This document shows positions 1 through 31,571 of a stretch of 64,000 nt of DNA, in pieces. The translations under genes were made by a program, and so were the position numbers. Under the pieces are notes generated by a model, which made no database searches, was not told the DNA's origin, and was given only the letters and a program-made list of their open reading frames with translations. Source of the DNA: a virus; IMG/VR virus record IMGVR_UViG_3300029566_000004; one strand, 5' to 3'. Positions within the stretch are counted from its first letter, which is position 1, and the number at the start of each line of letters is the position of its first letter.

Positions 1-3000
1 TTAGAATTATCTACACACCAAACAGATAGAACACGTTTATCAGAATTGTTTACATTTTGTGATAGTTTAATTTTTAATATAGATATTAAATGTAATTTAA
101 GGTCATCTTACCCATATGTTTACAAAGGAGCTTATAAAATTGAATTAGTACGTATTTTAAATGACACTGAATTAGTATTAGGAACGCTCGATATGAATGC
201 ACTGGTGGGTGATCCATATGGATATTATTCTTATTTACCACAATCTATTGTTATTAATTTAGATGCATTGCGTGAAGAGAAAAATGATTTATTCCCAGAA
301 TCTGCTATCTTGCAATTAAAAACATCATTAGTAACACCTTTTGAATATCGCACAGAAACAGGAGAGACATTGTTAATTCCAAGTGCTGTTTCTGCATATA
401 CACCTACATTAACTTATTAGATACCAGAATTAGTGGGTTTAAAACAATTTTTAACTACTGAAAAAATAACTATTTTACCTCCTTTGGTAGAATTTAAAAA
501 TTGTTCACTAGAAATTGGATTTAATACTACACATAAAAATCATACGTTTAATTTATATTAGCCTTTATAGAGTTCTGAAATGGTTGTCCCAATTTGGGTT
601 AATTATGATGAAGATACGAATACAAATATTGATTTTACTGATAGAAACAAACGCACATCATTATCATTAGAAGAATTTCGTTCTTCAGAAGAAAATCAAT
701 GGTTAATAGATGATGAATTAGCTACATGGCTAAATGCTATGATGAATAATACAAATAAGACCAATCCAGAAGCTATGTATGATGAAATAAAATATTCTAA
801 AATTGTTAATTATTTAAAACGTTGTAATATTAATCGTGCAACTGCTTTGTAGGAGTTTGGATTAGAAATTGCTCATTTGGCTCCTGAACAGAAAACAGAA
901 TTAATGCAAATGGTTAATACAAAAGAATTTTTAAGTGCTTATTCAGATATGCTTGATTTAAGCGCATTAATTGAAACAGATTGGCAAGAATTAATTGCCG
1001 CAACTAAAAAGGCAAATTAGTTGTTGTTGCGTCAGTATTTACCTAATGCGCAGGATAACTTACTTGTAGTTGATAATTCAGTTTCACTACTAGATAGTGA
1101 TTGTGAATTATTAGTTACTCCTACTGATTTTACAGATACTTATGCAACATTAAAAATTGCTTTAAAACGACGTGGGCCATTATATAATGGTAGTAATTAT
1201 TTACATTTAGTATTAGCGTTTAAAGAAAATATTGGTATTCAAATACCTGATGTAAATAATGAAAGAAAATGGAAGTATGCCATTGCTGATGGAACAACAT
1301 TTATGGAATTACCTACATCTCCTGACGATTCAGTTCCAAGAAATTCTACTTTAGTCAGTTGGATTAGTTCTTCAATATCTGATGATGACTATTATAAAGT
1401 AGCTATTGATATTTGGAATGGAGAACAAAGTTTTAATTTAGCTTCTAATATTATAACTTTATAGATTCCAATTGATGCAGCTTTTGTACAAGGACTAATT
1501 CCTCTTAAAATTGAAAGTGACGTAAATTCATCTATAAATACGCAAATATTTACCAATGATAATTTTGCTTCATTATTTACAACAGTTAAACAAAACATGC
1601 CAATGCATACTTGTTTGTTTTATCTTTATAAAGAATAGATTTCTACATCAAATACTCGAGATTATTATTCATTACCAGTTGGCAATGAACTTAAAGGATT
1701 TTTTGCCTCAGACTTATGGTGGTCAACAGAATCAGCTCAATTAAATGATTTATTAGTTTATGTATCTCGAGAATCATCGACATCTGCAAATGATTGGGAA
1801 TTTAGGCAGGGAGATTCTTTCAATGGTTTATATTTAAATAAATCAGCAGAAAATGCAGCTTATGGTATATTATTTCCTATTTAGTTTACAAATATTGAAG
1901 ATGATGAACCACTTCCTAACGTTTCTGAGGAAATCATTAATCAGAATCATAAAATTCAAGTCAGTTTTAATATTGAAGGCATAAAATCGGGTGATTAGTT
2001 AGAAGTTATTGTAAAACGTTGTACTAATGGTATAGAAACAATTCCAATTTATCAAATTTTTTAGCAAAATCGTTCGGTTAATTTTACTTTAGACGCAAAT
2101 CAACCAAGTAATGATTTTTATGTATTTAAATTTTTATACAAATAGGCAAATCTAAACTCACAGCCTGTATCTTGTTGTCTTTCTAATTTTCAATGTTCAC
2201 AAAAACATTGGGTAATTACGTCAGGATCAACGGATTTAGTAACTGGTGCATGGCAAGACGTTTTAGCATTTAATGTAATAAATCAATATAATATTAGTAA
2301 TGAACCAAAAGTTAATGGCTATACGTTTGCTCATAGTTATGTGGCTAAAACATTAGAGTTAAGTTATAAATCTAATATTGTTTTAACTACTGTATTAACT
2401 GATTTCTAGTGGCCTGATAATTTACAAGATTGGAGTGATATTTTAGAAGATAAATTAATTAATTTTCATAAGTATGATGTTCGAAAAGCTTTTAATCAAT
2501 TAAACGAAAAATTCGCTGAGTTATTTACTGATTTAAATATGTCTGTTTTACTTAATAATCATACTTGGCGCACCTAGTTTAAAATTTACTTATTAAATTG
2601 GTTGGGAATTTTAGATACAAGCTCTATTCCTATATCAAACGATCCAACCATTTTTGATATTTGGCAAGAAACTGCGATGCCCTTAAATGATATACTAAAT
2701 TTATAGTTAAAATACTTTACAGCAATTTACAATTATTTTCTTAATCTTTTAAATATTTGGTATTCAAATCAAAATATACAAGAATTAATTCCTTATTATG
2801 TAAGTGCTGATAATTTATTACTATTTAAAAATGAAATAGATTTATTGCAAATTCAATATGATCATTTAATTCTTATGATGAATGAATTAAATGAAAAAGT
2901 ACAAGCTTTATTTCCAAAATATATAGATTCTGCAGTTGAGACTATTGTTTCATTGTGGAAATTACCAACTGGAACTAATATTGGTCCGAACGATTTTGAG

Positions 3001-3435
3001 CGTGAATATAGCAATTTTTTAGATTATTTTAGTTAGCGTTATAGCGTTTTGCTATATCAATATAAATTATAGCCTGAAGAAACTAAACAATTTTATTTGA
3101 CTGGTCCATGGGAATTAATTCCGCCTATAGAGCATGAATATATTCAAGACTTATTAGATTCTACAGATTAGAAATAGATTAATTTATTGCCTTGGCTGTA
3201 GAGAATATCGACTACTGAGAATAGAACTCGTATTGATTCTAGTTCTATACGGGGTATTTTATTTTTCAACCATACCCCATATAAAAGCAATATTCTTAAT
3301 TTAGATGTCATAGAAGCAAATTCTAATGAATTAGTGATTGAACCTAATATTGAACTCATTCCTATATATACAAATACCGGTCAGATTTCTGGATATTTGA
3401 AAATACAGGATATTCGAGACGCTTTAGCTTTGTGA
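1..3435 (+). CDS. Large virion structural protein (tail/baseplate region), 5' end outside window; needs TAG read as sense
   Basis: Frame 1 is open from base 1 to TGA 3433-3435. Track fragments 46..420, 580..852, 1021..1464 and 2845..3036 are all in this frame. Every interruption I read is TAG (19); none is TAA or TGA. No catalytic motif recognised, so function is inferred from position only. Confidence 0.7.
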
Positions 3436-3486
3436 GATAAAGGAGGTCATATATGTATATAAAAACAAATATAAAGGAGGGATAGT

Positions 3487-6400
3487 ATGAGTAAATTATA
3501 CCCTCCAATCATTGAAAGTCGTTTACCCGCATTTAGTTTAACAGGTGGTAAAGGGTTAACTATTCCTTATCGCCAGAACCCTGCCGTTGGCGCTAATGAA
3601 GTAGATGGCTTTATTTGTTTAATTAAAACCTTGGGTGGTACAGAAAAAGGACGTTTATATTCTTAGACTAAGCCCAATTTAACCAATAATCTTGGCACTG
3701 TTACTTTTACATGGCATAAGCCAAGTACCGCAGAAAACAATGATAAGATAAAAAAGAGATTCGATGACAGCGCAGTTTTGTTAGCTTCATCTCCGCTCGA
3801 AGCTAGCGGAAGTGTGCCTGATACTGCTCATGATACTTCAGAATATATTTTAGGGCACCCTAATTATCAGTTAGAAGTAAATCGTATCTATAATGATGTA
3901 AATGATACAAATGCACTTGGTAATGAGCAATCATTAGACCATATACCAACAAGCGGTTATGATCCTGCCATTATTGAATTGATTAAACCAGAATATATAC
4001 CGCAAGATTCGGCATTTTTAGATGCAAGTCCAGGTGTATTGGCAGTTGAGGATTCATCCCCTACTGGAGGTACTGCTTTAATTGGTGATACTTCACAAGA
4101 AGATTATGATAATTATAAAAATATACCAATTGGCATTCGCGGCAATGCGATATTAATTAATAATAAATAGAATTATACTAATATTATTGATGAATTAAAT
4201 GGACAAACTATTTATAATACAGAGGGCAATTTTAATTTACAATACGATCAATTTTATAAAATTTAGTTGGCTTATTATCAAGGCGATGCAACTAATCTTG
4301 ATAATTTGTCTATTGGTTATTTTTCTGATGTAGCAATTATTAAATGTGTAAATTTGCCTAAAGCTATTATTGAGAATTTATCAATTAATTAGATTAATAT
4401 TATGAACAATAAATTTATTGGTGTCGTAAATAATTTGTATGGCACTGATAGACTTTATTCGTATCGTTTTGTTGTTGAAACTGTTAAATTAAATACTGAA
4501 CATGAGCATTAGATTGTATATGATACTGGTGAAATTTTATATACTGATTTTGATGATAAAATTTATACTAATTCTGATAATATTCAATTACGTTCTAGTC
4601 GTGTTGAATTGATTTATAATCAAGATCTAGAGTATATGCACAAGTACTATGTTACATTTTACGCAACGACCACTACAGGAATTAAAGTAGAATCTCCAAG
4701 CTATTTATTTAAAACTGGATATGCGATTCCTTTAAAATTTCATACACGTTATACACGACTTTTGGCGGAACCATTAATTAATAGTGGTGGTGTCAAGTTA
4801 AGCTTAACAACTGAACATGAAGCAATTGATACCAATACGGGGGAAAAAGTAATAACAAAAGATACAACTTTGTACAATGGTAAATTCCGCATTCTACGTT
4901 CAGATTCTCATTCTAAATATAAAACTTGGGATGAAATATTTTCTTTTGAATTACATGGTGAACATTTAGACCGAGCTTTATTTAATGATTTTACAATTGA
5001 ATAGAATACTGGATATCGCTATGCGCTACAACAATATAATCAAAAATTAGTTTCCAATAAATTATTGTCTAAAATAATTCATATTGATTATGAAGATATT
5101 TATCTGTCAGATGAAGACCATTTATTGCGAGTATGCTTTAATCCAAATATTTCTACCTTTAAACCAACAATTTTAGAATCTAAGTTGGAAACAATTGGTA
5201 GTAAATACCCTTATATGTTTAGAAATGGAATTGTAAACTATAAAGAATTTGCAATTACAGGCTTAATTTCTTATTTAATGGATAGTGACAATGTATTTTT
5301 ACCATATGAAGAAAGTATTTTTCAATTTGTAGAAAAAGAACCTCGTACAAACACTCGTAGTAAAATTGGTGTTAAACTTCCTGAAGAGTTTGACACAAAT
5401 AAAGATTCTATTAATTTAGTCTTAACTGATTTAACTGGTTAGAATATTTAGTATGAGCGTGATTTTAAGTTAAAAGTATTAAATTGGTTAACAAATGGCC
5501 AACCAAAATTATTACGTACGCCAACCGAAGGAAACTATATCGTTCGCTTAACCGGCGTATCATTATCTCCGTAGGCAGCTTTAGGGCGTATGTTACATAG
5601 CTTTAGTTGTACCGCATATGAAATCGATGAAGTAAATTTTGCGAATTTACAAAAATATCATTTATTGCGAATTAAATCTATTGCACCTCCAGAAGAGATT
5701 GAGTTAATATCAGACCAATTTGTATTTGATGAGCATGATTGTAAGGGTTTAATTAATCAAACTGATTTTTAGGCTTATTCAGATGAACAAGTTGGTGAAA
5801 CGAATTATCCTATTACCGCAATTCATATCCCAACTCAATCTGAATTGCTTGCAGCTATGCGTGATGACGGCGGATGGATTAATGGTTGGGCCAATCAAGT
5901 ACCACAGAATCTAACTAATGTGCGTTTTGAGGGATTTATACCAGGGTCTTATATTGGTTTAACCATGATTTCTTCTACTACTGGTGAAACTTATAAAGTG
6001 CCAATTTTAATTGGATTATCTGGTTGTTATAATGTATTAACTACAGATAAAATTAGTTTAGTTTATCCATTATGGGTACCGCCAAAACGCGTATGGAAAA
6101 TAAATGAAAAAATTAACTCTAAGGTAAGTAAGTTTGGTGCGCTTGGTTATTATACATATGAAGCGCAATCATTTAAAGGAACTATGTATTATTCTTATAA
6201 ACCATATTTAGTAGATAATACATTTAATTTAATTGATAGCGTTACTTTATCAGAAGATTTTATTCAAGTAACTGGATTACCTCGCAATTTAACGGCAGCA
6301 GAAACACCAAATTTAAAATATCCAAGATATTATTTTAATGTTAAAAATTAGTTAGATTTATTTGAATTTTATCAATTACATAATTTATTGACTAATGTGG

Positions 6401-8022
6401 CATATATTCATTCGATGCATTTTAGAGCACGTGATATTCTTGACTGTTATTTAATACCAGCACAAGATCTGTTGCCTTATGATTGGGATGAAACAAAAAA
6501 TGATTTTATTCAAGTAAATCGTTAGGGACAAGTCTTTTTATGTCGCACAGCGACTGCAGTGCCTTATAATAGTCCAAGGACTTATGACGGCAAGATTCCA
6601 TTATTAGTGAGTGAATTATTAGACCGCACTATTTATAGATGCCATTATTATAAAGATGGTCATGAACAAGTGAAAGATTTTGATGGCTGGCTTTTAAAAT
6701 TGGCTTTAGACAATTAGCATCGTAATATCCCAGAATGGGATTTTATTCATTATAAGTCAAATAGCTTAATTCAAAAATCATTATATGATTATGATTATGT
6801 TTATTTTAATAATTTACAATGGATGACTACTTGCGAAATTCCAGATGATAATTTTAATGCACAAATTACAATTGTTGTAGACGGTGAAGCCAGCGATCCC
6901 ATCACTTTTAATTATAATAATAATTTAACAATTACTGTAAAAACTGTTTCAGCAGAAGACGAGCAAGTATTAGCAAAAACGAAATTAACTACTGCCCAAG
7001 TGCAAATTAACCGTGATTCAAATGGTTATTCTTTCTTTGATTATCCTATTGGAACAACTTGCGAGATTGCGCTTGGGGCTAATGTTTAGGCGGATGCGAG
7101 CTTAACTGTAGCGCATTTAACTTATCAATTTCCCGCTTCCGCAGCGGCTGATACGTGGGCAAGAATTTTAAGTTGGTTTAGTGCTGCATTAAAAAAATAT
7201 TAGCAAAATTTTGCTAATAGTAACTCATCTTTAGATAGAACTTATTGGGATTATTAGATGCGTCATATTTGCTAGATCTACTTAGACTACTTAAATTGGT
7301 TTTTAATTGAAGCAAGTACTGTTGATCAGCCATTAATGATACCACCTATGCCTAGTTATAATTATTTTGATAATGCAGGAGTCAGTTTACCTTAGCTAAA
7401 CTATTGGAGAAATTTAGAATATTTATATGCAGATAGTGAAAGCTTTCCGCTAGAAAATGAAGAGCCAAAGTACGATCAAAATAATTTGATTTTTGCAGAT
7501 AAACTATACAATTATATTATTAAAGATATTAAGGCAGCTGAAATATCTGCCGCAGCGCCGGGCATTTATCGTGCGGCAGAGCCCATTTCTAATTTAGTGG
7601 GTTATATAGATAAGAATGGACAACTTATTACTTCAGTTGAACAAAATGGTTTAATTATTATTCCAAATAAAAGTGCTTTATTATTAGAAATGTCTCCTGA
7701 ATTGTTAGCTATTGAATCTAGTACTTCTAATATAGAAAATCAGTTAATGACGAATGATTTATATTCTGCGAAATCATTAAAAGATCTGGCAGCAAAAGAA
7801 GAACTTTCAATTCCCTTAGAATATGGCTACTATAAAGTTACAAATGATCTAACAGAAAATGAACTACTTAAACTAACGGTTGGTGGCAAATCATTGGCGC
7901 AAGTTATGCAAGACAATAATTTAGTAACATTGCATAAAAATACAATTTTATAGGTTATTCCTCCATTATATAGTAATGGTATAATAATTAATCCTACTAC
8001 TGGAGTTAATAATCAAGGATAA
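3487..8022 (+). CDS. Large tail/baseplate structural protein (1511 codons), TAG read as sense
   Basis: ATG 3487 follows AAAGGAGGG (3474-3482). Frame 1 runs through track fragments 3778..4170, 4609..5004, 5065..5442, 5590..5772, 5845..6351, 6823..7089 and 7486..7953 to TAA 8020-8022. Read codon by codon: 19 in-frame TAG, no TAA/TGA. Confidence 0.75.
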
Positions 8023-8039
8023 AAAGGAGGACTTTTATT

Positions 8040-11000
8040 ATGTTATATGATGCAAATTTTTTACAAAAACTAGATACACATCACGAACATACATATTACG
8101 TCCGAATACAAGCATTAACCTTTGATGAACGTCCACTAGAGCAGTTAGAAGGACGTATTACTTCTGGATCAATTAATCTTGATGGCAAGAGCGCAATTCG
8201 GCGCTCTTGCTCATTAAGCTTTATTGCTGAAGCAACTGAGATTAATGATTATTATTGGACATTTAAATAGAAATTTAAAGTTGAAATTGGTTTAGAAAAT
8301 AAAGTTGATGATTCATACCCATCTCGAATTTATTTTAATATGGGAACTTTTTTTATTACTAGTTTCAGTTCAACTTTTACTACTAATTCTGCCTCAATTA
8401 GTATCCAAGGAAAAGATAAAATGTGTTTATTGAATGGAGAATTGGGCGGCATTATTAATGCTGAAACAGATTTTGGTACTTATGACTATACTGATGCAAA
8501 TGGTGTTACAACGAATTATAAATTAACTATTCAAGAAATTGTTACAGATTTAATTTATAGTTATGCTCAAGAGCCATTATCTAATATCATTATATAGGAT
8601 TTAGATGATGTTGGTTTAGAATAGTTAGATTATAAGAACGACGATCCAATGTTTTTAATTCGCTCTTTTACAAGTGAGCGTTATGTGCTACCTTTGTTTA
8701 GTAGCGCTGATGTGACAGTTTATTGCTGTAAGGAAATCGGAAAAGACCAATATAAGTTTTCAGTATAGAAATTGAATAATGATAAAGTAATTATTTATGA
8801 TAGCCTAACTCGACCACTATTAGATAATAATTACATTGCTACACGATTTACATTTGAAGAAATGGATGAAACATAGACATATACGGCTGAATAGTTAAAT
8901 CAAATGCAATTATATTGCGCAGCTAAAATTACTTATGGTGAAGCAGTTGGCTACCGGGTTTGTCCATTGGTCTATGCGGGAGATTTAATTGCTAAAGCTG
9001 GCGATACAATTACTTCTGTGTTAGATAAAATTATAAAAATGTTAGGTGAATTTGAATATTTTTATGATGTTGATGGACGTTTTGTATTACGTCATAAAAA
9101 ATCATTTATCAATACTGTTTGGTTGCCAGAAATGGTAACAATTAGTTCGGATGAGGGAAGAGATCGTTATTGGCTAGATTATCAATATGCAACACCATAC
9201 ATATATGAATTTAAAGATACTAAATTAATTACTAATGTACAAAATTCTCCATAGTTAGCTTCAATTAAAAATGATTATACGGTTTGGGGGGAGCGCGTTT
9301 CTGCGGCCGGTGGTAAAGTACCTATTCATAGTAGATATGCTATTGACACTAAGCCAATTATATATGTCAGTGTTGCTCCTGATGCCGAACCAAATGTCTG
9401 GACTACTTTATCAGAAGCTGAATTTAAACACTATCAACTTAATATGCCATGGCTTAAGTAGCGTTTATTGTCGCGCATCTAGCTACATGCGTCATTAGAT
9501 TGGCGTGAATTAATTTATCAAATGGCTAAGGAATATCGTCAATACAATCATAACCATAACAATTTAGAATTTGAAGACTATCAAATTACGCTGGCAAAAC
9601 GCAATGAACCTTATTATCCAAATGGTCATACTGGCTATGAGCAATATTATATTGATTTAGAAGGTTTTTGGCGTCAATTATATTGGCCTTATGATAATAC
9701 TGATGAAGATGTTTTAAATGAAATGAGCGTTTATAATAAAGTAGTAGATTATAGTGAAATAAATAGTTCTAATTTATCTTAGTATTATATTAATGGTGTA
9801 TACCGTCCTAATAGTGCTGGATTAAAAATCTATTCTGAATAGGGAACAACTGAATTAGAATTAAAAACTACAGAGCATCCATGTAAGTTATATGGCACAA
9901 CTGATAAATGGGTTATTTTAGATAGTACTCATTGGTATTATGTTGATGAAAATGGTAAAGGATTTAATATTCCTACTGAATTAGGAATCAGTGAAATTCC
10001 GCAAATTGGACAATTTACTACTAAATTAATGCATGGTTGGTATACGTATGATACTATTCGTAATTTTTTAGAAAAAAGTCCAAGTGCAGATACATTTGTA
10101 AAATTTATTTATACTACGGCATATGACATTTCAAGTTAGTTGTGGTATAAATATTCTGATATTTCGCAATCTTTTATACCTTATTTGGACCAATATGACT
10201 ATTGTCCTATTTTAGCCACAGAAAATTATCCTATTGAAGGAATGACTATTAAAGAATATTATGAAAGAACATTTGTGGATGGAGAAGCGATATATAATGC
10301 AATTTCTGAAAGCTATAAAGGTTCAAAATATATGTTATATATTTTAAATGATGTAGATACAAATATAAAAAATATTCTACAGTAGAAAGATATGTGGTTG
10401 TCATTAATATCATTAATTCTTGAACGCAATCAATTACTATATTCCTCTTGGAGTAATTGGCAGAAATGGCTCAATGACAATGATTTTATTGAATTATTAA
10501 CATCAATTACCAATAATGTTTTATAGCAAGACTCAATAGAGCGTCGTTGGTGGCAAAATGAAATAATGACTACAGCTGATGCTATAATAGCTTTGCGTAT
10601 TGCTTTAGAGATGGAAGCATCTTCTCCTGAGTTATTATTGAAATATGATTGGAATCATGATGGATAGATTACTCTTACAGATGCTTTATTGATTATGCGT
10701 TCAGTATATAATCTTGATATGATTAACATTTCTTTGCCCAGTAGTATTTCATTAATAGATTTAAAAAACTTTATACAAAATGTAACAAATAATTATGGTG
10801 AAATAGTAGATAATTTAAGTGATGAGTTAATTGCGCAATATGATTTAGATGATGATGGATAGATTAATGAAGTTGAAATTTTTCTATGGACTTATATTTA
10901 TAATTCTTTGGTGTTAGCTGATAACTCAGAATTATCAAAATTAAACCCATTGGCACATTTTATTGTATCAAACATAATAGCTTGTCCTAGTGCAATTTAT

Positions 11001-12083
11001 GATTATTTTGTAAATTCTACTAGCACTAAGGATTAGCCCTTAATTTATGATGATTTAATTGGTTTAACTGTACAAATTAACAACACAGAGCTAATATCGG
11101 AATTATTTCAATTATTAAATTTTAATTCACTTTATCAATTGTAGTGGCTTTTAAATATGTACTATGATTTTATATATGATAATTTCTCTGTTTTGAAAGA
11201 TGCGCATATGTTATCATATCAATTATTTATAAATCAATTAGCTGCAAAAACTGATTTATACTATAATGCCAATAGTAATGAAAGTAAAAAAATGTAGTTT
11301 AATAAATTTATTACTTTATTTAATTCACATTACATTTATGATAATTTAAATTATTATAATTTACAGCATATAAAAATACATCCAATTTTATCAACATTTT
11401 ATCATTTAAATGAGCAGCCTATTGAACAATTAGCGATTATTCCATATGATATTCATGGTAATCCCACTTATTTAACACGTCACTATGAGAAAATAAATTA
11501 TTATACTCGTGATTTATTATATTATGGGGCGAGTGATGGTATACGAGCATATTGGAATAAAGCAGTTTATGAAGCTCCTTATACATTAAATTTCTGGTTT
11601 GATTTTTTAGATACAGATGGTAGTATTTCGGCATATGCTACATCCGAAATAGGAGACAGGCCAATAGTGGTTAATGATACTAATTTAAAATCCATTTTTT
11701 ATAGAGAAATTCCAAAAATTTTAATTTATACTTTTGATCAATTCCAAGATGAAAAAATAGAATTAAAATCTGGTTATGGCTATATTTTATTGCCAGCTGG
11801 TTATGAACAATATTTTTCTATTTCTTCACGAGGATTAAGTATTAAAAATAAAATTGATGATTTACTTTATCAACATACCTATTGCAATTAGACAATAAAT
11901 TTAACTTGTATACCTATTTATTATTTAGATGTAAATAGTCGTATTTATATTGGTGATAAAAGATTAGGGATTGATGATGATTTCGCCATTTAGAGCATTA
12001 GTTATTCATTAAATTATAATGGCACGATGTCTTTAAGTGCAGCAAAAATTTAGCCTAATTCAATATTTGAGAGAGAGGAGTAA
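8040..12083 (+). CDS. Tail-associated/baseplate protein with two dockerin/EF-hand-like Ca-binding repeats (1347 codons), TAG read as sense
   Basis: ATG 8040 follows AAAAGGAGG. The frame links track fragments 8040..8270, 8340..8597, 8904..9254, 9522..9782, 10140..10385 and 11667..11891 and ends at TAA 12081-12083. 22 in-frame TAG, no TAA/TGA. Loops DWNHDG(TAG)ITLTD and DLDDDG(TAG)INEVE lie near 10645-10900. Confidence 0.75.
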
Positions 12084-12088
12084 TTAGC

Positions 12089-12511
12089 ATGGCAAAATTA
12101 ATTGAACAATGGTTGCCTCCTATGGATAAATTAGGGAATTTAAATTTAATAGATGAATAGGGTAACCCAAGCAATACTTGGGTTATCCCTTTACAAAAAC
12201 GGCAAGTTGCATCGATTGGTATTCAAGGTCCAGAAGGATTAATGTTTAGTATTAATGGCGCGCCAACTAATAAAACTAATTATTTGACTATTGGTGCTTA
12301 TGGTGTTTATAATTTAACACGTCATGATATTCAAGATTTAACCATTCGATCTATTACTATTTATTTTACAGAAACAAATAGTAAATGGTTAACAAAAAAT
12401 CCTTGGCCAATTATTGTTGATGTTGTTTATAGCGAAGAAGAATATAAATTCATCGAAGCTACTACGCCTGATACAAATAATTCAGATCTAATTAATGATT
12501 CCAGTAAATAA
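12089..12511 (+). CDS. Small virion-associated protein (140 aa), one in-frame TAG
   Basis: ATG 12089 follows GAGAGAGGAG. Same frame as track ORF 12242..12511. One TAG near 12158. Ends at TAA. Confidence 0.6.
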
Positions 12512-12531
12512 GAGAGAAAGGAGATTATTAA

Positions 12532-15500
12532 ATGAGTAATATTATTACAACGGATAGTTTATATAATAATCAATTTACATAGAATTCTACATATAAAGAA
12601 TTACTAATCTTTAGAAGCAGATGGGATGCAGATAACCAACCCCGTAGTGGCACGGGCGCACTTGTTAATAATGAAGAAAAATTATTTTGGATAAAAACAA
12701 TTAAAGATTACCCATATGTAGAAATCAGTCATGGCAAACCAAATATGGAATGGGCTGATGGTACTGCTACGCCACTTGTTAATTCTAATAACATTTGTGT
12801 ATCATCCTCTGTGGCTAATAATCCGGTTGCTACAAACGCAACTGCATTGGAATGGGGATCGCAAATCCTTATTGCTAAGCCAATTGTTGCAGATACAGGT
12901 CATGTGATTGGTACAAAAAGTACAGGCATTAATATTCCAAAAGTTAATGCAATTGAAAAATTAGAAATGCGCAGTCATACTGCTAATAATTAGATAGAGT
13001 ATACTTTTGCGCATAAAACTATTAACAATCCGCCTAATTCCTCACCAATTGCAAATGCAACGGTTATTCAAGAAAGTCAAAATAATACTAGACCTAAATC
13101 TAAAATAAAATTTGGGAAAACTTATGATATATCACAAGATCAATTTGATCAATGGGGTCATTATCTATCTCAATCTACTTAGACAATAGATATGCCAAAC
13201 ATTAATGCAACGTCTCCAATAAGTGTTACTTTAAACAATGGTGACGCTTAGATATCTCATAGTCTGGCAACAATTGTTGAAACTACGCCACAATTTTCAA
13301 CTTATACTAATTCTACGAACACGAGGGTCAAACTGCCAGAATTGACATTAGAAAATAATTATAATTTAGAAGGCCCTCATACAGATGCATATGGACATGC
13401 TAATGCATAGGCGCAATTTGGTTTTGCTTTACGACATCACTTACCTTTAACCAGGAAGGCTACAGCGCATACTTATTTAAGTGATACTACTGGTAAAACT
13501 ACAGCAATAGCTAGACCAAAGCGTGACGGAGACGCAAGCAGAACTGCTCCAGAAAACCCAATTTCATCGCCTATTGATAAAATTAAAATGGCAGCAGTTA
13601 TTTATGCAGGAGATAATGATGGCAATCGTCAGTCTTGCGTATATTTAAATGATTCTACAGATACAATAATCAATATTTATTTTTTAAATAAATCATTAGC
13701 TACTAATGCTGGATTGCGCAATGCGTATTTAACTTTTACATTTCCAACAAATATTACAGTTACAGAAACTATTATGAATCAATCTTACATAGCTTCTACT
13801 GATACGCAATATCATTATTAGTTACTTAATAATCCAGATATAAATAATCCAATTAATATTTTAAAATTATCAGTGCGTTCAACAGGGATGATAAATAAGT
13901 CAGCGATTAATATATAGGTTACACCAGCTATTATTGAAGCGATTGATATCCCATGCACAACGGCTACTAATCTAGATGATAATGACCCTGATTCGAATAC
14001 CATTATAACTTGGCAAGAAGATGCAATTTTACAAACGCCAGTAATGCAATTTAATGAACAAGGTCATATTAATGATATTTTAACCAAAGGCATTGCTTTC
14101 CCACATTATACTACTCCTTATGGACGAGAAACTACATTTAGTAAGGCAATTGACTATTTAAATCGTTATTTATCACCTAATCCTCGTAATAGTGTAATTG
14201 ATTAGTATTTAACTGGCGCGTCGCCAATAATTGAAATTCCTACAAGCGATTCTCCTGGGTCTGGTGATTAGTAGATTTATAGTTCATATATTGAAGTAGT
14301 TTTATAGGCTTGTTTATTAAATAACGGAAATGGTTTAGTAACTGGCAAGTCTCTATCTTTCGCTGGCTTACAATTTTCTTTATATCAATATGATGAAACT
14401 GCAAATAAATGGCAGCCTTATGTTTGGCGCAAATCTATTTCGACAAATCAAGCTGAATTAGAGATTGGTAATAATAACAATACTTCTAATACTGGATACA
14501 TTTATTTAACTGATACTAAACAACGAATTGCTTTTGTTTTATCATAGCCTTATATAACAATAAATAATGAAATTTAGAAATATATATTAACAGGTAATAA
14601 TGTTGAATTACTATGGGATACATCAACTTATGGTTATGTTATTAATTTACCTGCGGTTAAAGATATTTCTCAAATTAATCCATATTAGTTAATTCAAATT
14701 TCATTAACTAAAGACGAAAGCTATTCTCCAAGCCCATCGCCAGATGTGCATAATGTTGAATTTAGAATTTGTGCAGCAATGAGAACTGGACTTAATACCC
14801 CACAAGGATGTAAGTTTTCTTTATATAAATCTATACAAGGAACAACTTTATACGATCGAATTGGTGCTCCTTATCAAATTAATGATATTTATATTGATGA
14901 AGCAAATTTATTAACAGATGTTAATCATTATGAATTTTATACTTCATAGATATAGACTATTGATTCCAATAGTCTTAATACTATATATGTAGGTTTGGAT
15001 ACTACAACAAATCAAACAATAAGTTTTAATTATGTAACTTGTCAATTGGCAGAAGAAATAGCTATAGGGAATAATGTTATTGCGTTTAAAAAGTTTACTC
15101 GTGGTATTAAGCCATCTATGGATCAATATGTGCTATTTGTCGTGGTAGACGAACAAGGTTATCCGCCAGTCAGACCAATTAATCCTACAGCCAGTGAATC
15201 TGAACAATCTTCTAAAAATGCAGGAATGGAAAATCGTATATCAGCTTTAGAGCAAGCCACATTACAATTAACTAATATTAGTGATTTAAAAAGTGTAAAC
15301 AATTTAATTTCACGTGTTGCTAATTTAGAAGATGAAATTAATCCTATTGAATATGACGCTGCAGTTGGGCAAATGATAGCAAAAAATCGTTTTGAGAAAA
15401 TTGATGCATAGACCAAATATTTAAATAAAAATAATTATCCAATAGATTTAGCTGATGCGTTTTCAAAATTATTAATGTGTTATACTGGATTAGTGAAAGA

Positions 15501-15645
15501 ATTAGCTGGTAAATTCTATAGCGATAATTAGAATCAATTTATAGCGACATTTGCATTGCCTCTTCTTAAAGAGAATGATAATTAGTCATATTTACCTAGC
15601 GATGATATACCTTCGTTAGATTCTAATACAGGAGGCGGTAAATAA
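12532..15645 (+). CDS. Tail fibre/spike-like structural protein (1037 codons), TAG read as sense
   Basis: ATG 12532 follows AAAGGAG. The frame joins track fragments 12745..12993, 13588..13821, 14746..14949 and 14995..15411 and ends at TAA 15643-15645 (TAATG overlap with the next gene). 19 in-frame TAG, including a tandem TAG-TAG at 14269-14274. Coiled-coil-like segment near the C terminus. Confidence 0.7.
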
Positions 15646-16133
15646 TGAATCTGAATTCAATTTTAGGCAATTTTGTTAAATTTGTACGTGGCACTCCAAC
15701 TGCATATAATAATCTTCAACAAAAAAATCCTGATACATTGTATTTTATTACTGAAGACAATGCTTCTTCGGGTAAATTATATTTGGGAAATAAATTAATA
15801 GGTGGCTCTATCACAGGAGCCACCTCTCTTTCTGAATTAGTTGATGTCTTCTTAGATAATAATTTATCGGTTAATCATATTTTAGTCTATGAAGGTAATC
15901 ATTGGGTTAATAAAGATATTCGAGATATTTTTGAGATATCTATTGGTACAATGCAAGGCGCAACTAAAGATACTGATGGTAAAATAGGTTTAGTACCTGC
16001 GCCGCAGGCCAATCAATAGGACACTTATCTTCGAGGAAATGGAACATGGGATAATCCTATAGCTACATACTCTGAACAAATTAATACTATGATTCAAGAA
16101 AAATTACAATGGTCTACCATTGAAGAAAATTAA
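15645..16133 (+). CDS. Tail fibre protein (short), one in-frame TAG
   Basis: ATG 15645 follows GGAGG. Track ORF 15645..16019 stops at TAG and continues to TAA 16131-16133. N-terminal VKFVRGT..YNNL..NPDTLYF fibre motif and YLRGNGTWDNP after the TAG. Confidence 0.65.
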
Positions 16134-16159
16134 AATAAATAAGAAAGGAATTTTTATTT

Positions 16160-17692
16160 ATGGCGACAAAATTAAATACTGCTGTAACGTTTGTACATGG
16201 TACACAAACTACATTAAATACTAAAGGTATTACCAGTGGTCAAATTTATTTTACTACTGATACTAATCGTTTGTATTGGGCAGATCCCAGCGATAGTGGA
16301 ACATTAAAATGGATTGATGGCGTGAGACGCACCAATGCATTGCCTAGCGCTCCGGGTTCATATAATCCAAGTGGTTCAATTTTAGTTGTTACACAATCTG
16401 ATGATAATGGTGCATATGATGGAGTCTATATTGCCGATGATACTAGTTGGATAAAATTAGATGCAACTACATTAAATAGTAGTATTACTACCGATAATAA
16501 TACCGCGCATATTTCTCTAACTCCTCAAGGAAAATATACTAAGGGGACAATGTTTGATATTAAAGGAGACGGCAATGTAACAATTAGCTCTGATTCAAGC
16601 ACAATTACTATTTCTGTTCCGACTCCAACTAATACGCATTTAGTTGCTAATGACCATGCTTTATCCGCGACTATAACTAATGGCGATTTATCCATTAATA
16701 TGTCTGCCTCTGATAGCGAAAATAATACAGTCAATGGTAAGATAATTATTAATGGCGGTTCAAATATTCATATTGACCAGAATGAGCTTGGCAATATCGA
16801 ACTTTCTGCAACTAATACTTAGCTTGCAGCTACCACCACCGCAGTTAATTTAACACCAGCATCTTCAACGAATGGTGTTAAAATTGTTACAACTATTTCT
16901 GATACTGCTTCTAATGCGGCTACTGGTAATTTTGAGCTTGTTGGCGCTGATGGTATTGCGATTTCCCATAATAATAATGTTATTACTTTAACAGGTGGTG
17001 CGGCAGGAGTTATTGGAAATATTAAAGATTATGTAAATTAGGCATTAGCTGATGCTCTTGGTGACTTAGACGCTATGAAGTTTAAAGGCGCAATTAGCGT
17101 AGCTGATTTTAATAATTTAAATCCTAGTACATTTGAAAGTGGTTGGGCTTATAAATTTATTACTTCTGGCACAGTAACAGGCGCTTCTGCGGATGTTGAT
17201 ATTGGTGATATGGTTATCATGTCACAAGATGCAAGGAATAATTGGATTTATAATATTATTCCTTCTGGTGATGACACTGATGTTTATTATACACCTTCTA
17301 ATGATGCTACAAATCATCAGGTTAAATTCACTGATAATACTGGCACTTTAACAGTAGCACATAAAATTATTGGTGCTAATGGTATTACTACAACTGCTTC
17401 AGTAAATGGCAAAACTTTAACTGAGACAATTAAACATGTAACAATTACACCAACCAGTACAAAAGCTACAGTTGCTAATAATTTCGTATCTACAATGACT
17501 TTTGATGACTACGGTCATCCGAGTACAGTTACATATGCACCTGCTCATGTTGCTGTAACACCTACTGCGAGCTCTTCAACTGTTAATACATTTATTAATG
17601 GTTTAACATTTGATACTTATGGTCATGTTACCGCATACACAAACGCTACTGTTGATATCGATACAAATATGTATTGGCATACACTTAGCTAA
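16160..17692 (+). CDS. Tail fibre protein (510 aa), two in-frame TAG
   Basis: ATG 16160 follows AAGAAAGGA. Track ORFs 16160..16822 and 17075..17692 share a frame and are bridged by TAG at 16820 and 17039. N-terminal VTFVHGTQTTL..GQIYFTTDT motif. Repeated TFDxYGH segments. Confidence 0.7.
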
Positions 17693-17716
17693 TTTTAAAG
17701 AAGGGAGTTGATAATA

Positions 17717-17962
17717 GTGCCAACTTCTATTATTCCAACAACGATACCTATTAAATTTATTACAACTTCAGCAGCTAATTTAAATGATATTAATATAGTG
17801 GCTGGCCAAATTATTTATACTACTGAAGGCAATATTTATTATGATCAATCAAATTTATCGCGTGTACGCATGACTATTGAACCTACTTTTACAGTTGAAA
17901 ATAATTCAACAACATTAATAATTGGAATGCCTACACATACTCCTCCAGTAGTTACCAAATAA
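17717..17962 (+). CDS. Small fibre-associated protein (81 aa)
   Basis: GTG 17717 lies 9 nt after AAGGGAG (the track starts at TTG 17708). The IKFITTSAANL..GQIIYTTEGNIYY motif is paralogous to the two fibre N termini upstream. Ends at TAA 17960. Confidence 0.55.
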   Translation: MPTSIIPTTIPIKFITTSAANLNDINIVAGQIIYTTEGNIYYDQSNLSRVRMTIEPTFTVENNSTTLIIGMPTHTPPVVTK

Positions 17963-18010: not shown

Positions 18011-18406
18011 TTATTTATTCTCACGTACTTTAGCTTCAATTAAAACTTTAATATAGCTTTCTAAGTCGCCATATACTTCGTTTAAATATGTTTTAGCTTC
18101 GTCAGTCAAATTATTAAGTACTGCTGTATACGCCATGGTAAAAGCTTCTTTCTATGCTTCTGCTGTAAAGGCATTTTTACCCTTGAGCGCATCAACATAT
18201 GTCTAGTTTACAGCAATAACTGCATTGGTTACCGTGTCGGTAAGCATTGCAATATATTTCTTTGATAGCTCATTATCAGCATTTGCTGCAAGTGTTGCTG
18301 ATTTAGTTCTAATCCATTGAATTATAAATGGGACTAAAACACCTAACAAAGGAATAATACACATTTCAAAAATCTTACCCAAAAGTTCAACTATTTCTGT
18401 TGGCAT
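18011..18406 (-). CDS. Membrane protein, holin-like by position (131 aa), two in-frame TAG
   Basis: ATG 18406 follows GAGGTG. Hydrophobic N terminus (IFEMCIIPLLGVLVPFIIQWI). Track ORF 18203..18415 stops at TAG 18203; a second TAG is at 18152. True stop is TAA 18011-18013. Confidence 0.55.
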
Positions 18407-18421: not shown

Positions 18422-18913
18422 TTATTTTAAATTTGCTCGATACTTAACTTCTACTAAATTATAAAGATCGTCGCCATCATGATTTCCGTGTAATGCATTA
18501 TAAATTCGATGCTCGTTTGTAATGTGTTCAAATTCTTTTAGTGTAATTTCATGATCATTCTCTAATAAAGCACGACATTCTTCTTTAAATTGACGTCCTT
18601 GAATAGATAATATACCTTCTGTTAAAGTTGTTAAATTATTTTGATTATTTATAATCTAAGCATGAATTGCTTTATTTTCAGCGGCAACTTTATTTTCATC
18701 CTCTTGGATTATTTTTAGTATAGAACGCTAATAATCATCTAAAATTGTCTTTATATTTTCAGCAATTTCTTTATTCATTTGCTCTTGACGGTCTTCAGTC
18801 CTTTTTTTACGTTGTTTATACATAAGTGTTACACCAGTGACAATACCACTTGCAATTAAACCAAATACGAACTCAAGCCAATATTTGATGATAAATTCCC
18901 AGATAGCATTCAC
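18422..18913 (-). CDS. Membrane-anchored protein with long helical C-terminal part (lysis-module candidate), two in-frame TAG
   Basis: GTG 18913 lies 9 nt after AGGAGG. N-terminal transmembrane helix (WLEFVFGLIASGIVTGVTLM). TAG at 18728 and 18656. Ends at TAA 18422-18424. Confidence 0.55.
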
Positions 18914-19007: not shown

Positions 19008-19481
19008 TTAAGACCAATCAAAGCCAACATTGTTCTTTACATATGCAGCACCTATACAGATAGCGTCACTTTCATCTTCAGATACTTTTTTATTATAGTG
19101 ATTTAAGACATATTGCTATGCGTTTTTTTTCTATATTCCACGCTCTTTTCCTTTAATGCCAAGTACTGAACGCCAATGCGCGCAAGTATAAATTATATAA
19201 TTTTTACCGAATAGTTCAACAGCTAATTCTTCTAATACTCCAAGAACTTTGCCTAAAATTTTATAAGTTTGTGGATCTTGCTATAACTATATATCTTCTA
19301 ATATCATAAATTCTATTTGATACTATTGGCATAACTATTGTACTGACTATCGTAAAATCTAAAGACGCGTACCCAAATGCTCATTAGTCAATTTAATAGT
19401 ACCACTTGCAATTAATTTATCTCCATCAAAAATACTATATCCTGTTACATGACTTGCCTAATCGAGTGCAAGGATTCTCAA
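19008..19481 (-). CDS. RuvC-like Holliday junction resolvase (157 aa) with nine in-frame TAG
   Basis: N terminus (M)RILALD(TAG)ASHVTGYSIFDG. Central ILEDI(TAG)L(TAG)QDPQTYKILGKVLGVL. C-terminal DESDAICIGAAY. Putative TTG start overlaps the dUTPase TGA (TTGA). Ends at TAA 19008-19010. Absent from the ORF track because TAG fragments it. Confidence 0.7.
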
Positions 19482-20020
19482 TGACTAGACCCAAAGCCCC
19501 CGATACGCTCCTTCTCGGCAACGTCATCTTCGGTCTTTATATATTTTTTAATTATTCCTTGCCCAATATAATCACCCTTTTGGATGATAATAGGAATTGG
19601 CGAGAAATTAATTAATTGGAAAAAAATTTCCCCCTCATTATCAGGATTGTTATAATAGTCAGCATCCACAATGCCGACTGCATTAGCCATTACAAGCCAA
19701 TGTTTATGAGGGAGAGAGCTACGAGCCATGATTTCAAGATATTCATCATCAGCTAACTTCACTTTCATTCCAGTAGACACTAATACAGGACGAGCATCTG
19801 CGGATTTTGTTAAGGTAGCCATTTGTGCCATGGTTAATTCAGGAGCGGCGATAGGGTTGCGATCCCATTCATGTTTCATGTCATATACCAAGCGTTCATA
19901 TGGAGGGATAATTTTCTCTTCTGCTGCTTGAAAATCATAACCGGCCGAACATTTAGTTGCCCGCGCGGGTAAAATCAAATTAGCATTATCAAAACGACTT
20001 ACAACTTCAAATTTTGCCAT
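19478..20020 (-). CDS. dut: dUTP pyrophosphatase (trimeric dUTPase)
   Basis: MAKFEVV start at 20020 after AGGAGAG (the track start 20146 is an upstream extension). Motifs SAGYDF, VGIVDADY and C-terminal GGFGSS. TGA stop. No TAG. Confidence 0.85.
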   Translation of the reverse strand: MAKFEVVSRFDNANLILPARATKCSAGYDFQAAEEKIIPPYERLVYDMKHEWDRNPIAAPELTMAQMATLTKSADARPVLVSTGMKVKLADDEYLEIMARSSLPHKHWLVMANAVGIVDADYYNNPDNEGEIFFQLINFSPIPIIIQKGDYIGQGIIKKYIKTEDDVAEKERIGGFGSSH

Positions 20021-20039
20021 AATATACTCTCCTAAATTA

Positions 20040-20297
20040 TCAAAAGTTGGGTTCATTACCATAAGAATAAGAAATAGTTGTAATACCATCAGGTTCTTTT
20101 TCATCATTGAATAAACGATTAAGTGTAACACGATACCAAGTATCAATTATTTCTCCTTTAGCTTTGCGTTCACGATATTCACAATTGTACTTAATAAGGT
20201 CACCTTTTCCATCTGCTTTTGCGGCCTCTATTAATTGTTTGGCAGCGTCTTCGTTAGGAACTCGATATATTTCTTGCGTTTTTAATAAATAATTCAT
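20040..20297 (-). CDS. Hypothetical protein (85 aa)
   Basis: Intact track ORF in operon context; RBS-like AAGGAG upstream. Confidence 0.5.
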   Translation of the reverse strand: MNYLLKTQEIYRVPNEDAAKQLIEAAKADGKGDLIKYNCEYRERKAKGEIIDTWYRVTLNRLFNDEKEPDGITTISYSYGNEPNF

Positions 20298-20306
20298 ATT
20301 AACTCC

Positions 20307-20570
20307 TTAAATAATTTCAATGTGCAGAGGAGGATGCCCTGCATAATATTCTTTACTGATGGCGAGTGCGTCACCAGCAATTTTGCTTGCTAACTCTCGA
20401 GGAGCAGCAACTACGATTGTATCACAATGATAAGTATAATAGAAAGCACAAAGTATTGTGCCGAGATCATATATCTTACTATATGCGATTAATGTTGGAT
20501 GCTCATTATTATCAACTAAATAAATAGCCTACATATTAGAACCAATTTGTACTTCAGTTGTTATTTTCAT
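20307..20570 (-). CDS. Hypothetical protein (87 aa) with one in-frame TAG
   Basis: ATG 20570 overlaps the upstream TAA (TAATG). TAG at codon 14 (20529-20531). Ends at TAA 20307-20309. Without read-through, 270 nt would be non-coding in a packed operon. Confidence 0.5.
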
Positions 20571-21094
20571 TATGCCACCCCATTTATAATACCTTGTTTG
20601 TAATCAAAGAAAACATAGCAATAAGTACCTTCATCATTTGTAATCCAGATTTCAGCCGTCCAAGTATCTTCATTTACAGTAATATCTTTAATTTCACCTA
20701 GATTTTCAATAACTTCCATAAAGATATCACTTAATTCTTCATTACTATAATCATCATGATGGAAAATAGTAATGTAACGACGTTCCCAGCATATAAGAGC
20801 CCAATAATTTTGTTCAGGCATACCCGGATCCATAGTTGCGCCAAACATACGATAAATATCTGTCTGTGCCTTGCGCAACTGTTCATCTGTCATTGGTTTT
20901 AATTGTGCAAAAATACTAGAATTTAAATCTGCTAAAGTAATTGTGAACTCACCGCCATCCAATTTTACTGGTTCCCAACTACCATTTTTACATTGATACA
21001 TTTTCTTATCTTCTTCCACAAGCGCATATTCATTTTCCATGTTCTCACGATATGGAAGAGCATCTAATATTTTTTTTGTTTTAATATTTAACAT
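20570..21094 (-). CDS. Hypothetical protein (174 aa)
   Basis: Intact track ORF; AAGGGAG upstream of the ATG. Confidence 0.55.
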   Translation of the reverse strand: MLNIKTKKILDALPYRENMENEYALVEEDKKMYQCKNGSWEPVKLDGGEFTITLADLNSSIFAQLKPMTDEQLRKAQTDIYRMFGATMDPGMPEQNYWALICWERRYITIFHHDDYSNEELSDIFMEVIENLGEIKDITVNEDTWTAEIWITNDEGTYCYVFFDYKQGIINGVA

Positions 21095-21122
21095 ATATTT
21101 ACTCCCTTACTATTCTATATAT

Positions 21123-21131
21123 ATTATACCA
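21123..21131 (-). promoter_or_regulatory. Extended -10 promoter element (TGgTATAAT) followed by ATATATAGAA
   Basis: Minus strand reads TGGTATAATATATATAGAATAG. Same -10 and downstream motif as the other early promoters; the -35 is weak. Confidence 0.35.
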
Positions 21132-21142
21132 TAAAATATTTT

Positions 21143-21604
21143 TCATTTCTACTCGTCATATACTTTAGCAGTGTTAATTAATATACGTTTTAATTGTGGA
21201 TCCATACTAAATCTATTAGCATTTTTTTCAATACTTTTTAATAGGTTACCATCTAACTGACGCTCGGAAGCAGCCTTCCAGTCGCAAAACATTTCAACAA
21301 TATCAATTAAATTCATATCATCAATACTATTATCAAAATGCTCTGGATGATGCCTATATTGAGCATAATGGTGTTGAAGCGCACCATTCATTTTTTCTAA
21401 GCATTCGCGATACTCCGGACTATCATAAGTTAATTCGGAAAGCTTAGGCGTATATTCTGTAAAGACTTCAAGCTCAGGGTTTTCGAGTTTAGCTCTATCA
21501 TGTTCAAGTCCACGAGCATATAGCTTATTAATAAATAGCTATATATACTCGCGCACTTTTTCAATATGTTTATAGGTTTCAACTTTACATTCAGCTTGTG
21601 TCAT
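21143..21604 (-). CDS. Conserved phage protein with HHY..YRHHPEHF / DWKAA motifs (DUF5662-like, tentative); two in-frame TAG
   Basis: ATG 21604. TAG at 21539-21541. Track ORF 21149..21391 ends at TAG 21149 and continues two codons to TGA 21143-21145. Confidence 0.5.
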
Positions 21605-21605
21605 A

Positions 21606-25736: not shown

Positions 25737-25805
25737 AAGTTACTCCTTTATCTAAATGTAGTATGGTGTGGGGATACACCTACTATATATGGATTTTATA
25801 ATAAT

Positions 25806-30261: not shown

Positions 30262-30302
30262 TTCTTCCTCCCTTCATAATTTTATAATATTCTTACTTTA
30301 TA

Positions 30303-31520: not shown

Positions 31521-31571
31521 GACTTACTTCCTCCATTTCTTGAAGTTTTAAATTTTTTATTTTCTATAATC

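Follow-up and report, generated by a model that had tools for sequence, protein, structure and literature searches.

A tailed phage related to the Phass-1 group that appears to read TAG as glutamine in its late and mobile genes

Known code-15 phages and the present lineage

Reading of TAG as glutamine (Gln), with TAA and TGA kept as stops (code 15), has been described in crAss-like, Lak and 'gemstone' phage clades (Ivanova 2014; Yutin 2021; Borges 2022, 10.1101/2021.08.26.457843; Peters 2022, PMC9523058). It has also been described in the Phass-1 group, whose genomes of ~136 kb show TAG-to-Gln recoding in 41 open reading frames (ORFs), tail and holin genes included, carry two or three tRNA-Sup-CTA genes and a DNA polymerase III alpha signature protein, and are predicted to come from a Clostridia host (Babkin et al. 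2023, PMC10607447). The NCBI taxon of Phass-1 (OQ749652) is named 'Caudoviricetes code 15 clade'. The subject here is a stretch of 64,000 nucleotides (nt) from the IMG/VR virus record IMGVR_UViG_3300029566_000004, referred to throughout as the window, whose first 17,962 positions hold a block of eight plus-strand genes (g1 to g8) interrupted by TAG and by no other stop codon. The favored reading, to which a probability of roughly 0.9 is given, is that the window belongs to a code-15 phage that encodes its own tRNA with a CUA anticodon, keeps its early genes poor in TAG, and leaves its late genes to await that suppressor.

The window is a portion of the genome, of ~130-140 kb, of a tailed, gut-type phage, and by protein similarity its closest described relative is Phass-1, of the proposed Phassvirus group. 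Identity to Phass-1 is 30-31% for g2 and g3, 37% for DnaE, 35% for RecJ, 39% for GyrA and 40% for PhoH, with the genes in similar order. The two phages share their genome size, a very long tape-measure gene, and a plus-strand structural block followed by a minus-strand replication block in which DnaE, RecJ, primase, GyrA/B and PhoH are common to both; TAG-to-Gln recoding of structural and lysis genes, the holin among them; and large tRNA arrays with CUA tRNAs but no dedicated synthetase. Given that the original prediction had presented recoding in a phage with a DnaE-type replisome and Shine-Dalgarno translation as a distinctive combination, it should be said that this is not new, the Phass-1 group already having DnaE, TAG-to-Gln recoding and tRNA-Sup-CTA (PMC10607447). 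The differences are nevertheless considerable. The proteins are only 25-40% identical and no nucleotide match exists, which indicates a different genus at least; nucleotide similarity of the kind seen among Phass-1 congeners (83-86% identical) is absent. Further, a second late block separates the tRNA array from the replication genes in the window phage, whereas in Phass-1 the array comes directly behind them, and the examined parts of the window phage have one CUA tRNA per contig as against two or three in Phass-1. As measured by identity, DnaE is equally similar to that of Phass-1 (37%) and those of SPbeta phages (38-39%).

Other comparisons are looser. The crAss-like, Lak and 'gemstone' clades similarly have suppressor tRNAs, recode TAG to Gln chiefly in their structural and lysis genes and keep early genes compatible with the standard code, but they are unrelated lineages, and most crAss-like and Lak hosts are Bacteroidota. 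SPbeta-like Bacillus phages and Enterococcus phages EF1 and VRE9, which use the standard code, are similar in genome size but show low identity. Shared with them are a DnaE-type polymerase (YorL of SPbeta) and the N-terminal domain of g3 (35% over 190 amino acids, aa), the latter seen in EF1 and VRE9, and no recoding has been reported for EF1 (PMC10607447). The presence of Enterococcus phages among the relatives, together with strong Shine-Dalgarno sites, points to a probable Bacillota host. Six IMG/VR contigs of 77-139 kb, all from one metagenome, are 96-99% identical to the window, and the lineage is already represented in IMG/VR, ENA and Logan assemblies, relevant records being IMG metagenome 3300045988, ENA ERZ28653751 and Logan ERR3588754. 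Since positions 1-18000 gave no megablast match among GenBank phages and the phage search returned no DnaE match of 60% amino-acid identity or more, the phage represents a separate lineage at the level of genus or above.

Reading frames and the residue at TAG

The ORFs were recounted mechanically with TAA and TGA alone as stops, codons being counted from the chosen starts. The plus-strand ORFs so bounded run 1-3435, 3475-8022, 8013-12083, 12071-12511, 12532-15645, 15642-16133, 16139-17692 and 17699-17962, and the genes within them (Table 1) comprise 5,935 codons in frame, with 83 TAG, 0 TAA and 0 TGA. This reproduces the original prediction of eight packed genes with 83 TAG and no other stop in about 5,900 codons. 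In the two alternative frames there are 657 TAA, 248 TAG and 414 TGA, and position-specific base composition would lead one to expect ~195 TAA and ~61 TGA in frame; a complete lack of both thus excludes chance. An AGGAGG-like motif precedes seven starts, namely the ATG of g2 to g7 and the TTG of g8, and a TAATG overlap, also foreseen, is present at 15643-15647. The prediction that every stop is followed by a Shine-Dalgarno site and the next start within 0-30 nt needs amending in one place, as the spacer between g1 and g2 measures 51 nt. In that spacer (3436-3486), the Shine-Dalgarno site and ATG of g2 are preceded by a second AGGAGG and, after it, an ATG at 3453 that is out of frame.

Were TAG to terminate translation here, as in the standard code, the block would be either a decaying or pseudogenised module or a set of more than 80 small genes, and under translation table 11 the region is indeed formally fragmented, just as it is intact once TAG is taken as sense. 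However, of the three stop codons TAG alone interrupts the frames, most of the fragments lack the ribosome-binding site that the long ORFs possess, and other phages encode full-length homologues, 750-1,450 aa long, without interruption. Variation among strains, taken from six contigs ~98% identical to the window across the tail block, speaks equally strongly against it: 77 of the 83 TAGs are identical in every aligned strain contig, single nucleotide polymorphisms (SNPs) in g1 to g8 fall at codon positions 1, 2 and 3 in the numbers 203, 129 and 426, and the variants comprise 403 synonymous and 322 non-synonymous changes, with not one of the 725 variant codons making TAA or TGA. The excess at third positions and the absence of new TAA or TGA mean that these frames are translated through their TAGs under purifying selection. 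Gene decay, which the original prediction had discounted on the strength of TAG being the sole stop in frame, is ruled out by the same evidence, and termination at TAG is left with a negligible probability.

As to the residue inserted, the RuvC-type Holliday-junction resolvase encoded just beyond the tail block is informative. Five of its nine TAGs fall on Q8, Q65, Q67, Q117 and Q122, Gln columns with little or no variation across 19 homologues (within the motifs ALDQ, EDIQLQ and QK.NAQ), and its closest homologue (P0001, 78% identical), encoded by an ORF uninterrupted under the standard code, has Q at eight of the nine TAG positions. The RuvC structures in the PDB were too distant for assigning the residue. 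For g3, a full-length 1347-aa protein in ENA (P0034, representing a cluster of 496 member sequences) is 97% identical and carries Q at the TAG positions, from which it follows that at least one pipeline had already called this lineage with code 15. Because the four closest database homologues of g3 had been translated in this way, their Q was circular, and relatives were therefore compared by codon rather than by database translation. In two syntenic relatives, a 153-kb ENA contig (L025) and a second contig (L026), the g3 TAG codons 186, 195, 700, 1284 and 1318 are CAA in one or both. Across g1 to g8, the partner of a TAG in these two relatives is itself TAG in 27 cases; of the 250 other partners, 46 are Gln codons. 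Ranked by likelihood under an empirical substitution profile, Gln is best at -715, leading by ~100 log units over Lys (-817), with Ser at -850 and Tyr (-1016) and Trp (-1038) near the bottom. Likewise, 10 of the 15 polymorphic TAG sites among strains exchange TAG with CAG, others involving TGG (2), TCG (1), AAG (1) and TAT (1), with TAA never seen. Invariant RuvC columns, CAA in relatives, likelihood, polymorphism, selection and the CUA tRNA described below thus agree that TAG is a sense codon read as Gln, as originally proposed.

The suppressor tRNA and the points that weigh against glutamine

No tRNAs or Rfam matches lie inside the window. The tRNA array was reached by walking along same-species contigs, the known suppressors of the group being too divergent for a degenerate DNA pattern, whose chance hits would have been too numerous. 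It numbers 20 tRNAs or more, encoded on the strand that carries the replication genes (the minus strand of the window), and begins ~11 kb to the right of the window. The original prediction had looked to the rest of the genome for a tRNA with a CUA anticodon, and one of 89 nt is found ~13 kb beyond the window in three contigs that are 96-99% identical to it (L022 6799-6887, L023 6809-6897 and L024 3153-3241), its sequence being identical or nearly so in all three. It scores 58.5 bits on the Rfam tRNA model against a threshold of 29. The label 'Pyl' that ARAGORN attaches to it is the default name for any CUA anticodon, and no families of the pyrrolysine pathway (pylS/pylBCD) turned up in Pfam scans of the scanned window proteins. 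Its acceptor end, from the sequence and the ARAGORN cloverleaf, has U1-A72, G2-C71, G3-C70 and G73 with an encoded CCA. The identity set of tRNA-Gln in E. coli consists of U1-A72, G2-C71, G3-C70, G73 and U35, a set that the CUA tRNA matches.

Several observations weigh against the interpretation given so far and deserve to be taken together. The CUA tRNA is known from same-species contigs and not from the window's own record. It is 60/74 identical to the phage tRNA-Trp(CCA) as against 52/75 to the phage tRNA-Gln(UUG), and its variable region carries a 16-nt insertion, at odds with the class I short loop of tRNA-Gln; given both features, its charging identity is unreadable from the sequence alone. 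The columns of g3 that hold TAG contain Gln at only 4%, the background level, in 107 homologues 40-50% identical, and the distant homologues mostly have T, N, L, E, S or A there (the tally covers 118 homologues, nearly all 30-50% identical). Finally, suppression would have to be highly efficient in genes with ~20 TAGs, yet the ~95 kb examined yielded no gene for a release factor, a synthetase or an amidotransferase, most window proteins being covered by Pfam or PHROG scans and the ORF translations of the ~31-kb flank (L009, L022, L027) being inspected by eye only; some of the code-15 clades, in contrast, carry release-factor or synthetase genes.

These observations bear chiefly on the proposal that TAG is sense but encodes Trp, Ser, Tyr, Lys or pyrrolysine. 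The likeness to tRNA-Trp would favor the first of these, the enlarged variable region and G73 suggest Ser, and the few strain variants toward TGG, TCG, AAG and TAT could be read in the same spirit. Against this stand the five near-invariant Gln columns of RuvC, the CAA codons in relatives of g3, the lead of Gln in the likelihood ranking and the dominance of TAG-CAG exchange among polymorphisms. The low Gln level in distant g3 homologues, set beside CAA in close ones, indicates that many TAGs occupy positions that turned to Gln within the clade, and does not mean that TAG encodes another residue. Nor need a Trp-like tRNA insert Trp, since giving E. coli tRNA-Trp a CUA anticodon turns it into a substrate of GlnRS (PMC2965240, citing Yaniv et al. 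1974), which makes a Trp-like origin compatible with Gln insertion. A residue other than Gln is accordingly regarded as very improbable.

The origin of the suppressor is a matter for more tentative statements. The tRNA-Trp(CCA) of the phage is encoded at L022 5331-5404 (contig IMGVR_UViG_3300045988_165556), and its first 25 nt match the suppressor at 22/25; from the one to the other, A1-U72 becomes U1-A72, CCA becomes CUA, and 16 nt are inserted in the variable region. The suppressor may therefore be a duplicated phage tRNA-Trp in which the anticodon was changed, the first pair flipped and a variable arm gained, a route to code 15 reminiscent of su+7, although this is judged less likely than not. 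Like E. coli supE (a tRNA-Gln with CUA) and su+7 (a tRNA-Trp with CUA, charged with Gln), the phage tRNA is a CUA tRNA that would insert Gln at UAG, and it shares with su+7 in particular the resemblance to a tRNA-Trp whose CCA has turned to CUA (PMC2965240). It differs in having U1-A72 in place of A1-U72 and the 16-nt insertion, and in that its charging with Gln is predicted; moreover, supE and su+7 rescue a mutation, whereas the phage tRNA has more than 100 sense TAGs to read across its genome. Were the Trp-derived origin correct, this single tRNA, charged by the host, would have to read up to 22 TAGs per gene, no release-factor or synthetase gene having been found in the ~95 kb examined. An su+7-like origin may be shared with one of the Phass-1 suppressors.

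Other features of the suppressors and of the array were observed in passing. In Phass-1, the anticodon arm of the second suppressor is almost the same as that of the phage's tRNA-Trp, and a long variable arm is found in the first suppressor as well. In a more distant relative from the same metagenome (L013, IMGVR_UViG_3300045988_078413, 131 kb; its fibre-like protein shows 37% identity to the one at window 62709-64000), a CUA tRNA of normal length, 74 nt, stands at 7025-7098 beside a tRNA-Gln(UUG), so that suppressors are heterogeneous across the wider group. Amid the array, further genes were noted by eye at L022 1062-1727, 3153-3797, 6093-6653 and 7203-7733, with 5, 0, 2 and 2 TAGs; they comprise GIY-YIG-like and HNH-like endonuclease genes and, beside the suppressor tRNA, a gene with a methyltransferase-like NPPF motif.

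Early, late and mobile genes

Recoding was originally described as a trait of the virion and tail block, and in this respect the description was too narrow: in-frame TAG recurs in the plus-strand block at 61142-64000, in the minus-strand genes lying at 18011-19481, and in all but one of the five homing-endonuclease genes. With genes classed as early or late by homology and position, 30 early genes of replication type have 1 TAG against 300 CAA and CAG in 9,797 codons, the late genes have 101 TAG against 212 CAA and CAG in 7,333 codons, and the homing-endonuclease genes have 12 TAG in 1,376 codons. Expressed per 1,000 codons, TAG stands at 13.8 in late and 0.1 in early genes (Fisher p = 2e-32). 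No convincing TAG-terminated genes were seen, at most ~5 minus-strand ORFs having TAG near their end. The G+C (guanine plus cytosine) content varies between 29 and 39% across the window, and the GC skew flips near 18 kb and near 61 kb, which matches the strand switches.

Whether this partition has been selected or has merely accumulated is a fair question. TAG may be Gln and the division between early and late genes nonetheless neutral, TAG having drifted into faster-evolving genes after capture of the suppressor. The low G+C (29-34%), the variable and lineage-specific positions of TAG and its rapid turnover (TAG is kept as TAG at 7 of ~80 aligned window positions in L025 and 20 of ~70 in L026) are in keeping with such drift, as is the evolutionary route proposed by Borges et al. 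(10.1101/2021.08.26.457843), in which low G+C strips away TAG stops and a tRNA is then captured. Yet the contrast between the classes is extreme, the well-conserved RuvC has TAG at invariant Gln positions, and a non-structural holin and four of five endonuclease genes lying within early genes are recoded, a pattern that fits function or timing over rate of evolution. A neutral partition is hence considered unlikely, while retaining appreciable weight.

A third possibility, that the host itself reads TAG as Gln and the phage mirrors its code, draws on a scan of bacterial genomes in which DnaE relatives 57-62% identical were found on four contigs of 53-175 kb (L029-L032; JALFQD010000403/409 and CAMELE010000001/10) from bins labelled 'Clostridium sp.' and 'uncultured Mollicutes'. 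The scan yielded only phage-sized contigs binned into metagenome-assembled genomes, and as one bin contains two different DnaE relatives, these look like mis-binned phage DNA. Further, a recoded host would neither force 30 early genes to avoid TAG nor require a CUA tRNA of the phage, and no bacterium is firmly known to use code 15. This possibility therefore merits hardly any credence.

The preferred interpretation remains that of a code-15 phage with its own suppressor. That TAG is decoded as Gln and that a CUA tRNA is encoded within the phage species are conclusions drawn from sequence. The early genes are readable under either code, and being essentially without TAG they can be translated by unmodified host machinery, as the genes of replication and nucleotide metabolism would be upon infection. 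The tRNA array would be expressed early, along with the early strand, and the suppressor would be charged by a host enzyme; the tail, holin, RuvC, fibre and endonuclease proteins would be completed only once it outcompetes release factor 1. The partition of TAG between early and late genes would thereby act as a timing gate on assembly and lysis, a model already published for other code-15 phages by Borges et al. (bioRxiv 10.1101/2021.08.26.457843).

The genes concerned are collected in Table 1. Pfam and PDB sequence searches of g1 to g8 returned almost nothing, and their functions consequently rest on synteny and predicted fold. In L025 a 3,379-aa tape-measure protein (PF10145) is followed by eight genes that map one-to-one onto g1 to g8, after which holin, dUTPase and reductase genes follow on the opposite strand; by this synteny g1 to g8 are assigned to the tail module that succeeds the tape-measure gene. 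The edge of the window cuts g1, whose start in a same-species contig lies ~460 nt further left, just past the end of a tape-measure-like ORF that likewise has TAGs. For g3, which has 1,668 homologues, the AlphaFold model of one that is 58% identical (P0036; mean predicted local distance difference test score, pLDDT, 73) matches the baseplate hubs of Mu (gp44), a Listeria prophage (gp18), the T5 tail tip and the 80alpha baseplate, and so is predicted to fold like a baseplate hub. As for g3 itself, its distant homologues show strong conservation at the columns of codons 77, 186, 195, 405, 1284, 1318 and 1338, with T, N, L, N, E, S and A/P respectively; the phage has TAG there, and at most of these columns CAA or TAG is found in closer relatives, a clade-wide shift to Gln. 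No profile match was obtained for g5 or for the protein adjoining the holin.

Table 1. Position, strand and in-frame TAG count of features in the window (L025 and L026 are the syntenic relatives described in the text)
Feature	Position	Strand	TAG	Basis and remarks
g1, partial, first gene after tape-measure gene	1..3435	+	19	L025 counterpart 1656 aa
g2, large tail-tip/baseplate-region protein, 1511 aa	3487..8022	+	19	phrog_30026, E 5e-18 (function unknown); L025 counterpart 1467 aa, 39% identical
g3, predicted baseplate-hub/Tal-like tail protein, 1347 aa	8040..12083	+	22	phrog_32343, E 1e-37; phrog_1887 'tail protein'; L025 counterpart 1374 aa
g4, small tail-module protein, 140 aa	12089..12511	+	1	L025 counterpart 128 aa
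g5, large tail fibre/receptor-binding candidate, 1037 aa	12532..15645	+	19	role from position; L026 counterpart 79% identical; L025 counterpart 1023 aa, 36% identical
g6, tail-tip-domain protein, 162 aa	15645..16133	+	1	weak PF24243 'Phage tail tip domain' match; L025 counterpart 162 aa, 84% identical
g7, fibre-like protein, 510 aa	16160..17692	+	2	L025 counterpart 515 aa, 71% identical
g8, small protein, 84 aa, TTG start	17708..17962	+	0	L025 counterpart 83 aa
Holin	18011..18406	-	2	phrog_13712, E 5.5e-32
Possible lysis-associated protein	18422..18913	-	2	position only, adjoins holin; hydrophobic N-terminal segment by eye
RuvC-type Holliday-junction resolvase	19008..19481	-	9	PF02075, E 4.7e-10; PDB RuvC matches
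Early/replication module	19478..61549	-		almost TAG-free; Pfam, PHROG, similarity
GIY-YIG/NUMOD3 homing endonuclease	22947..23570	-	2	in mobile insertion splitting reductase gene
LAGLIDADG gene	24374-25228	-	0	between reductase pieces
DnaE-type polymerase	26374-30261	-		38-39% identical to SPbeta YorL over 98% of length
Primase	33736-34839	-	1	sole TAG among 30 replication-type genes
GIY-YIG homing endonuclease	35802..36482	-	3
Protein with C-terminal GIY-YIG domain	42005..43045	-	3
LAGLIDADG homing endonuclease	52355..53296	-	4	splits PhoH-like gene
Sigma-70 factor	59785-60627	-		early module
Second late block start, fibre-like proteins	61142..64000	+	5 (in window)	~7 kb more beyond, with TAGs

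Besides the genes tabulated, the early module encodes dUTPase, a ribonucleotide reductase in three exons, guanylate kinase, an SF1 helicase, RecJ, a DnaB-like helicase, AAA_24, an NAD-dependent ligase, GyrA, GyrB, RNase H, a split PhoH, phosphoesterases, an RNA ligase and an exonuclease. Beyond the window, in its continuation on another contig (L009 11365-17933, 7 kb to the right), several fibre-like, repeat-rich proteins are encoded, most with in-frame TAG, and a possible endolysin was noted by eye only. Past this second late block come TAG-free minus-strand genes (adenylosuccinate-synthetase-like and vWA/TROVE-like, by eye) and then the tRNA array.

The mobile genes are of interest in their own right, as they sit within early genes and nevertheless use TAG. 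The barrel domain of the reductase is divided among 25275-25736, 23733-24308 and 21606-22808 (minus strand), corresponding to Pfam positions 1-77, 78-286 and 286-522, and because the same-species contigs L002 and L005 lack exactly window 22817-23750, that segment is a mobile insertion, probably of intron type. Similarly, the PhoH-like gene is in halves at 53576-54430 and 51893-52234 (minus strand), and window 52362-53422 is absent from same-species contigs L009-L012. The DnaB-like helicase at 36635-37699 (minus strand) covers no more than positions 10-134 of DnaB_C, a profile of 255 positions, with a GIY-YIG gene and then a 178-codon ORF (35127-35663, no Pfam match) downstream, and may be another split gene. 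An extra insertion of ~1 kb, intron or intein, was observed in DnaE of L001 (11100-12134; window ~28660) and is absent from the window. A ThyX-like gene in halves at 41362-41772 and 40356-40733, guessed by eye, was dropped as it had no Pfam support. A recoded, intron-borne homing endonuclease in an early gene has been reported from a TGA-recoded clade (Borges et al., 10.1101/2021.08.26.457843).

The finding is correct, but it concerns a known type of system already published in this phage group, and the current picture of phage recoding is unchanged by it. Two points are modestly new. One is that the suppressor is Trp-like and its variable arm enlarged; the other is that four of the five endonuclease genes carried by introns or insertions are cleanly recoded. 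There are also practical implications. Gene calling in such phages needs translation table 15, as table 11 shatters the tail, lysis and endonuclease genes, with the result that annotation and taxonomy fail. With 1 against 101 TAGs, the window offers an internally controlled partition of code between early and late genes. Further, it is a good system for asking how near-complete suppression at ~20 TAGs per gene is achieved by one tRNA without an obvious release-factor countermeasure, and which enzyme of the host attaches Gln to a CUA tRNA that resembles tRNA-Trp. More broadly, with this window a divergent lineage joins the code-15 phages that encode DnaE and probably infect Bacillota.

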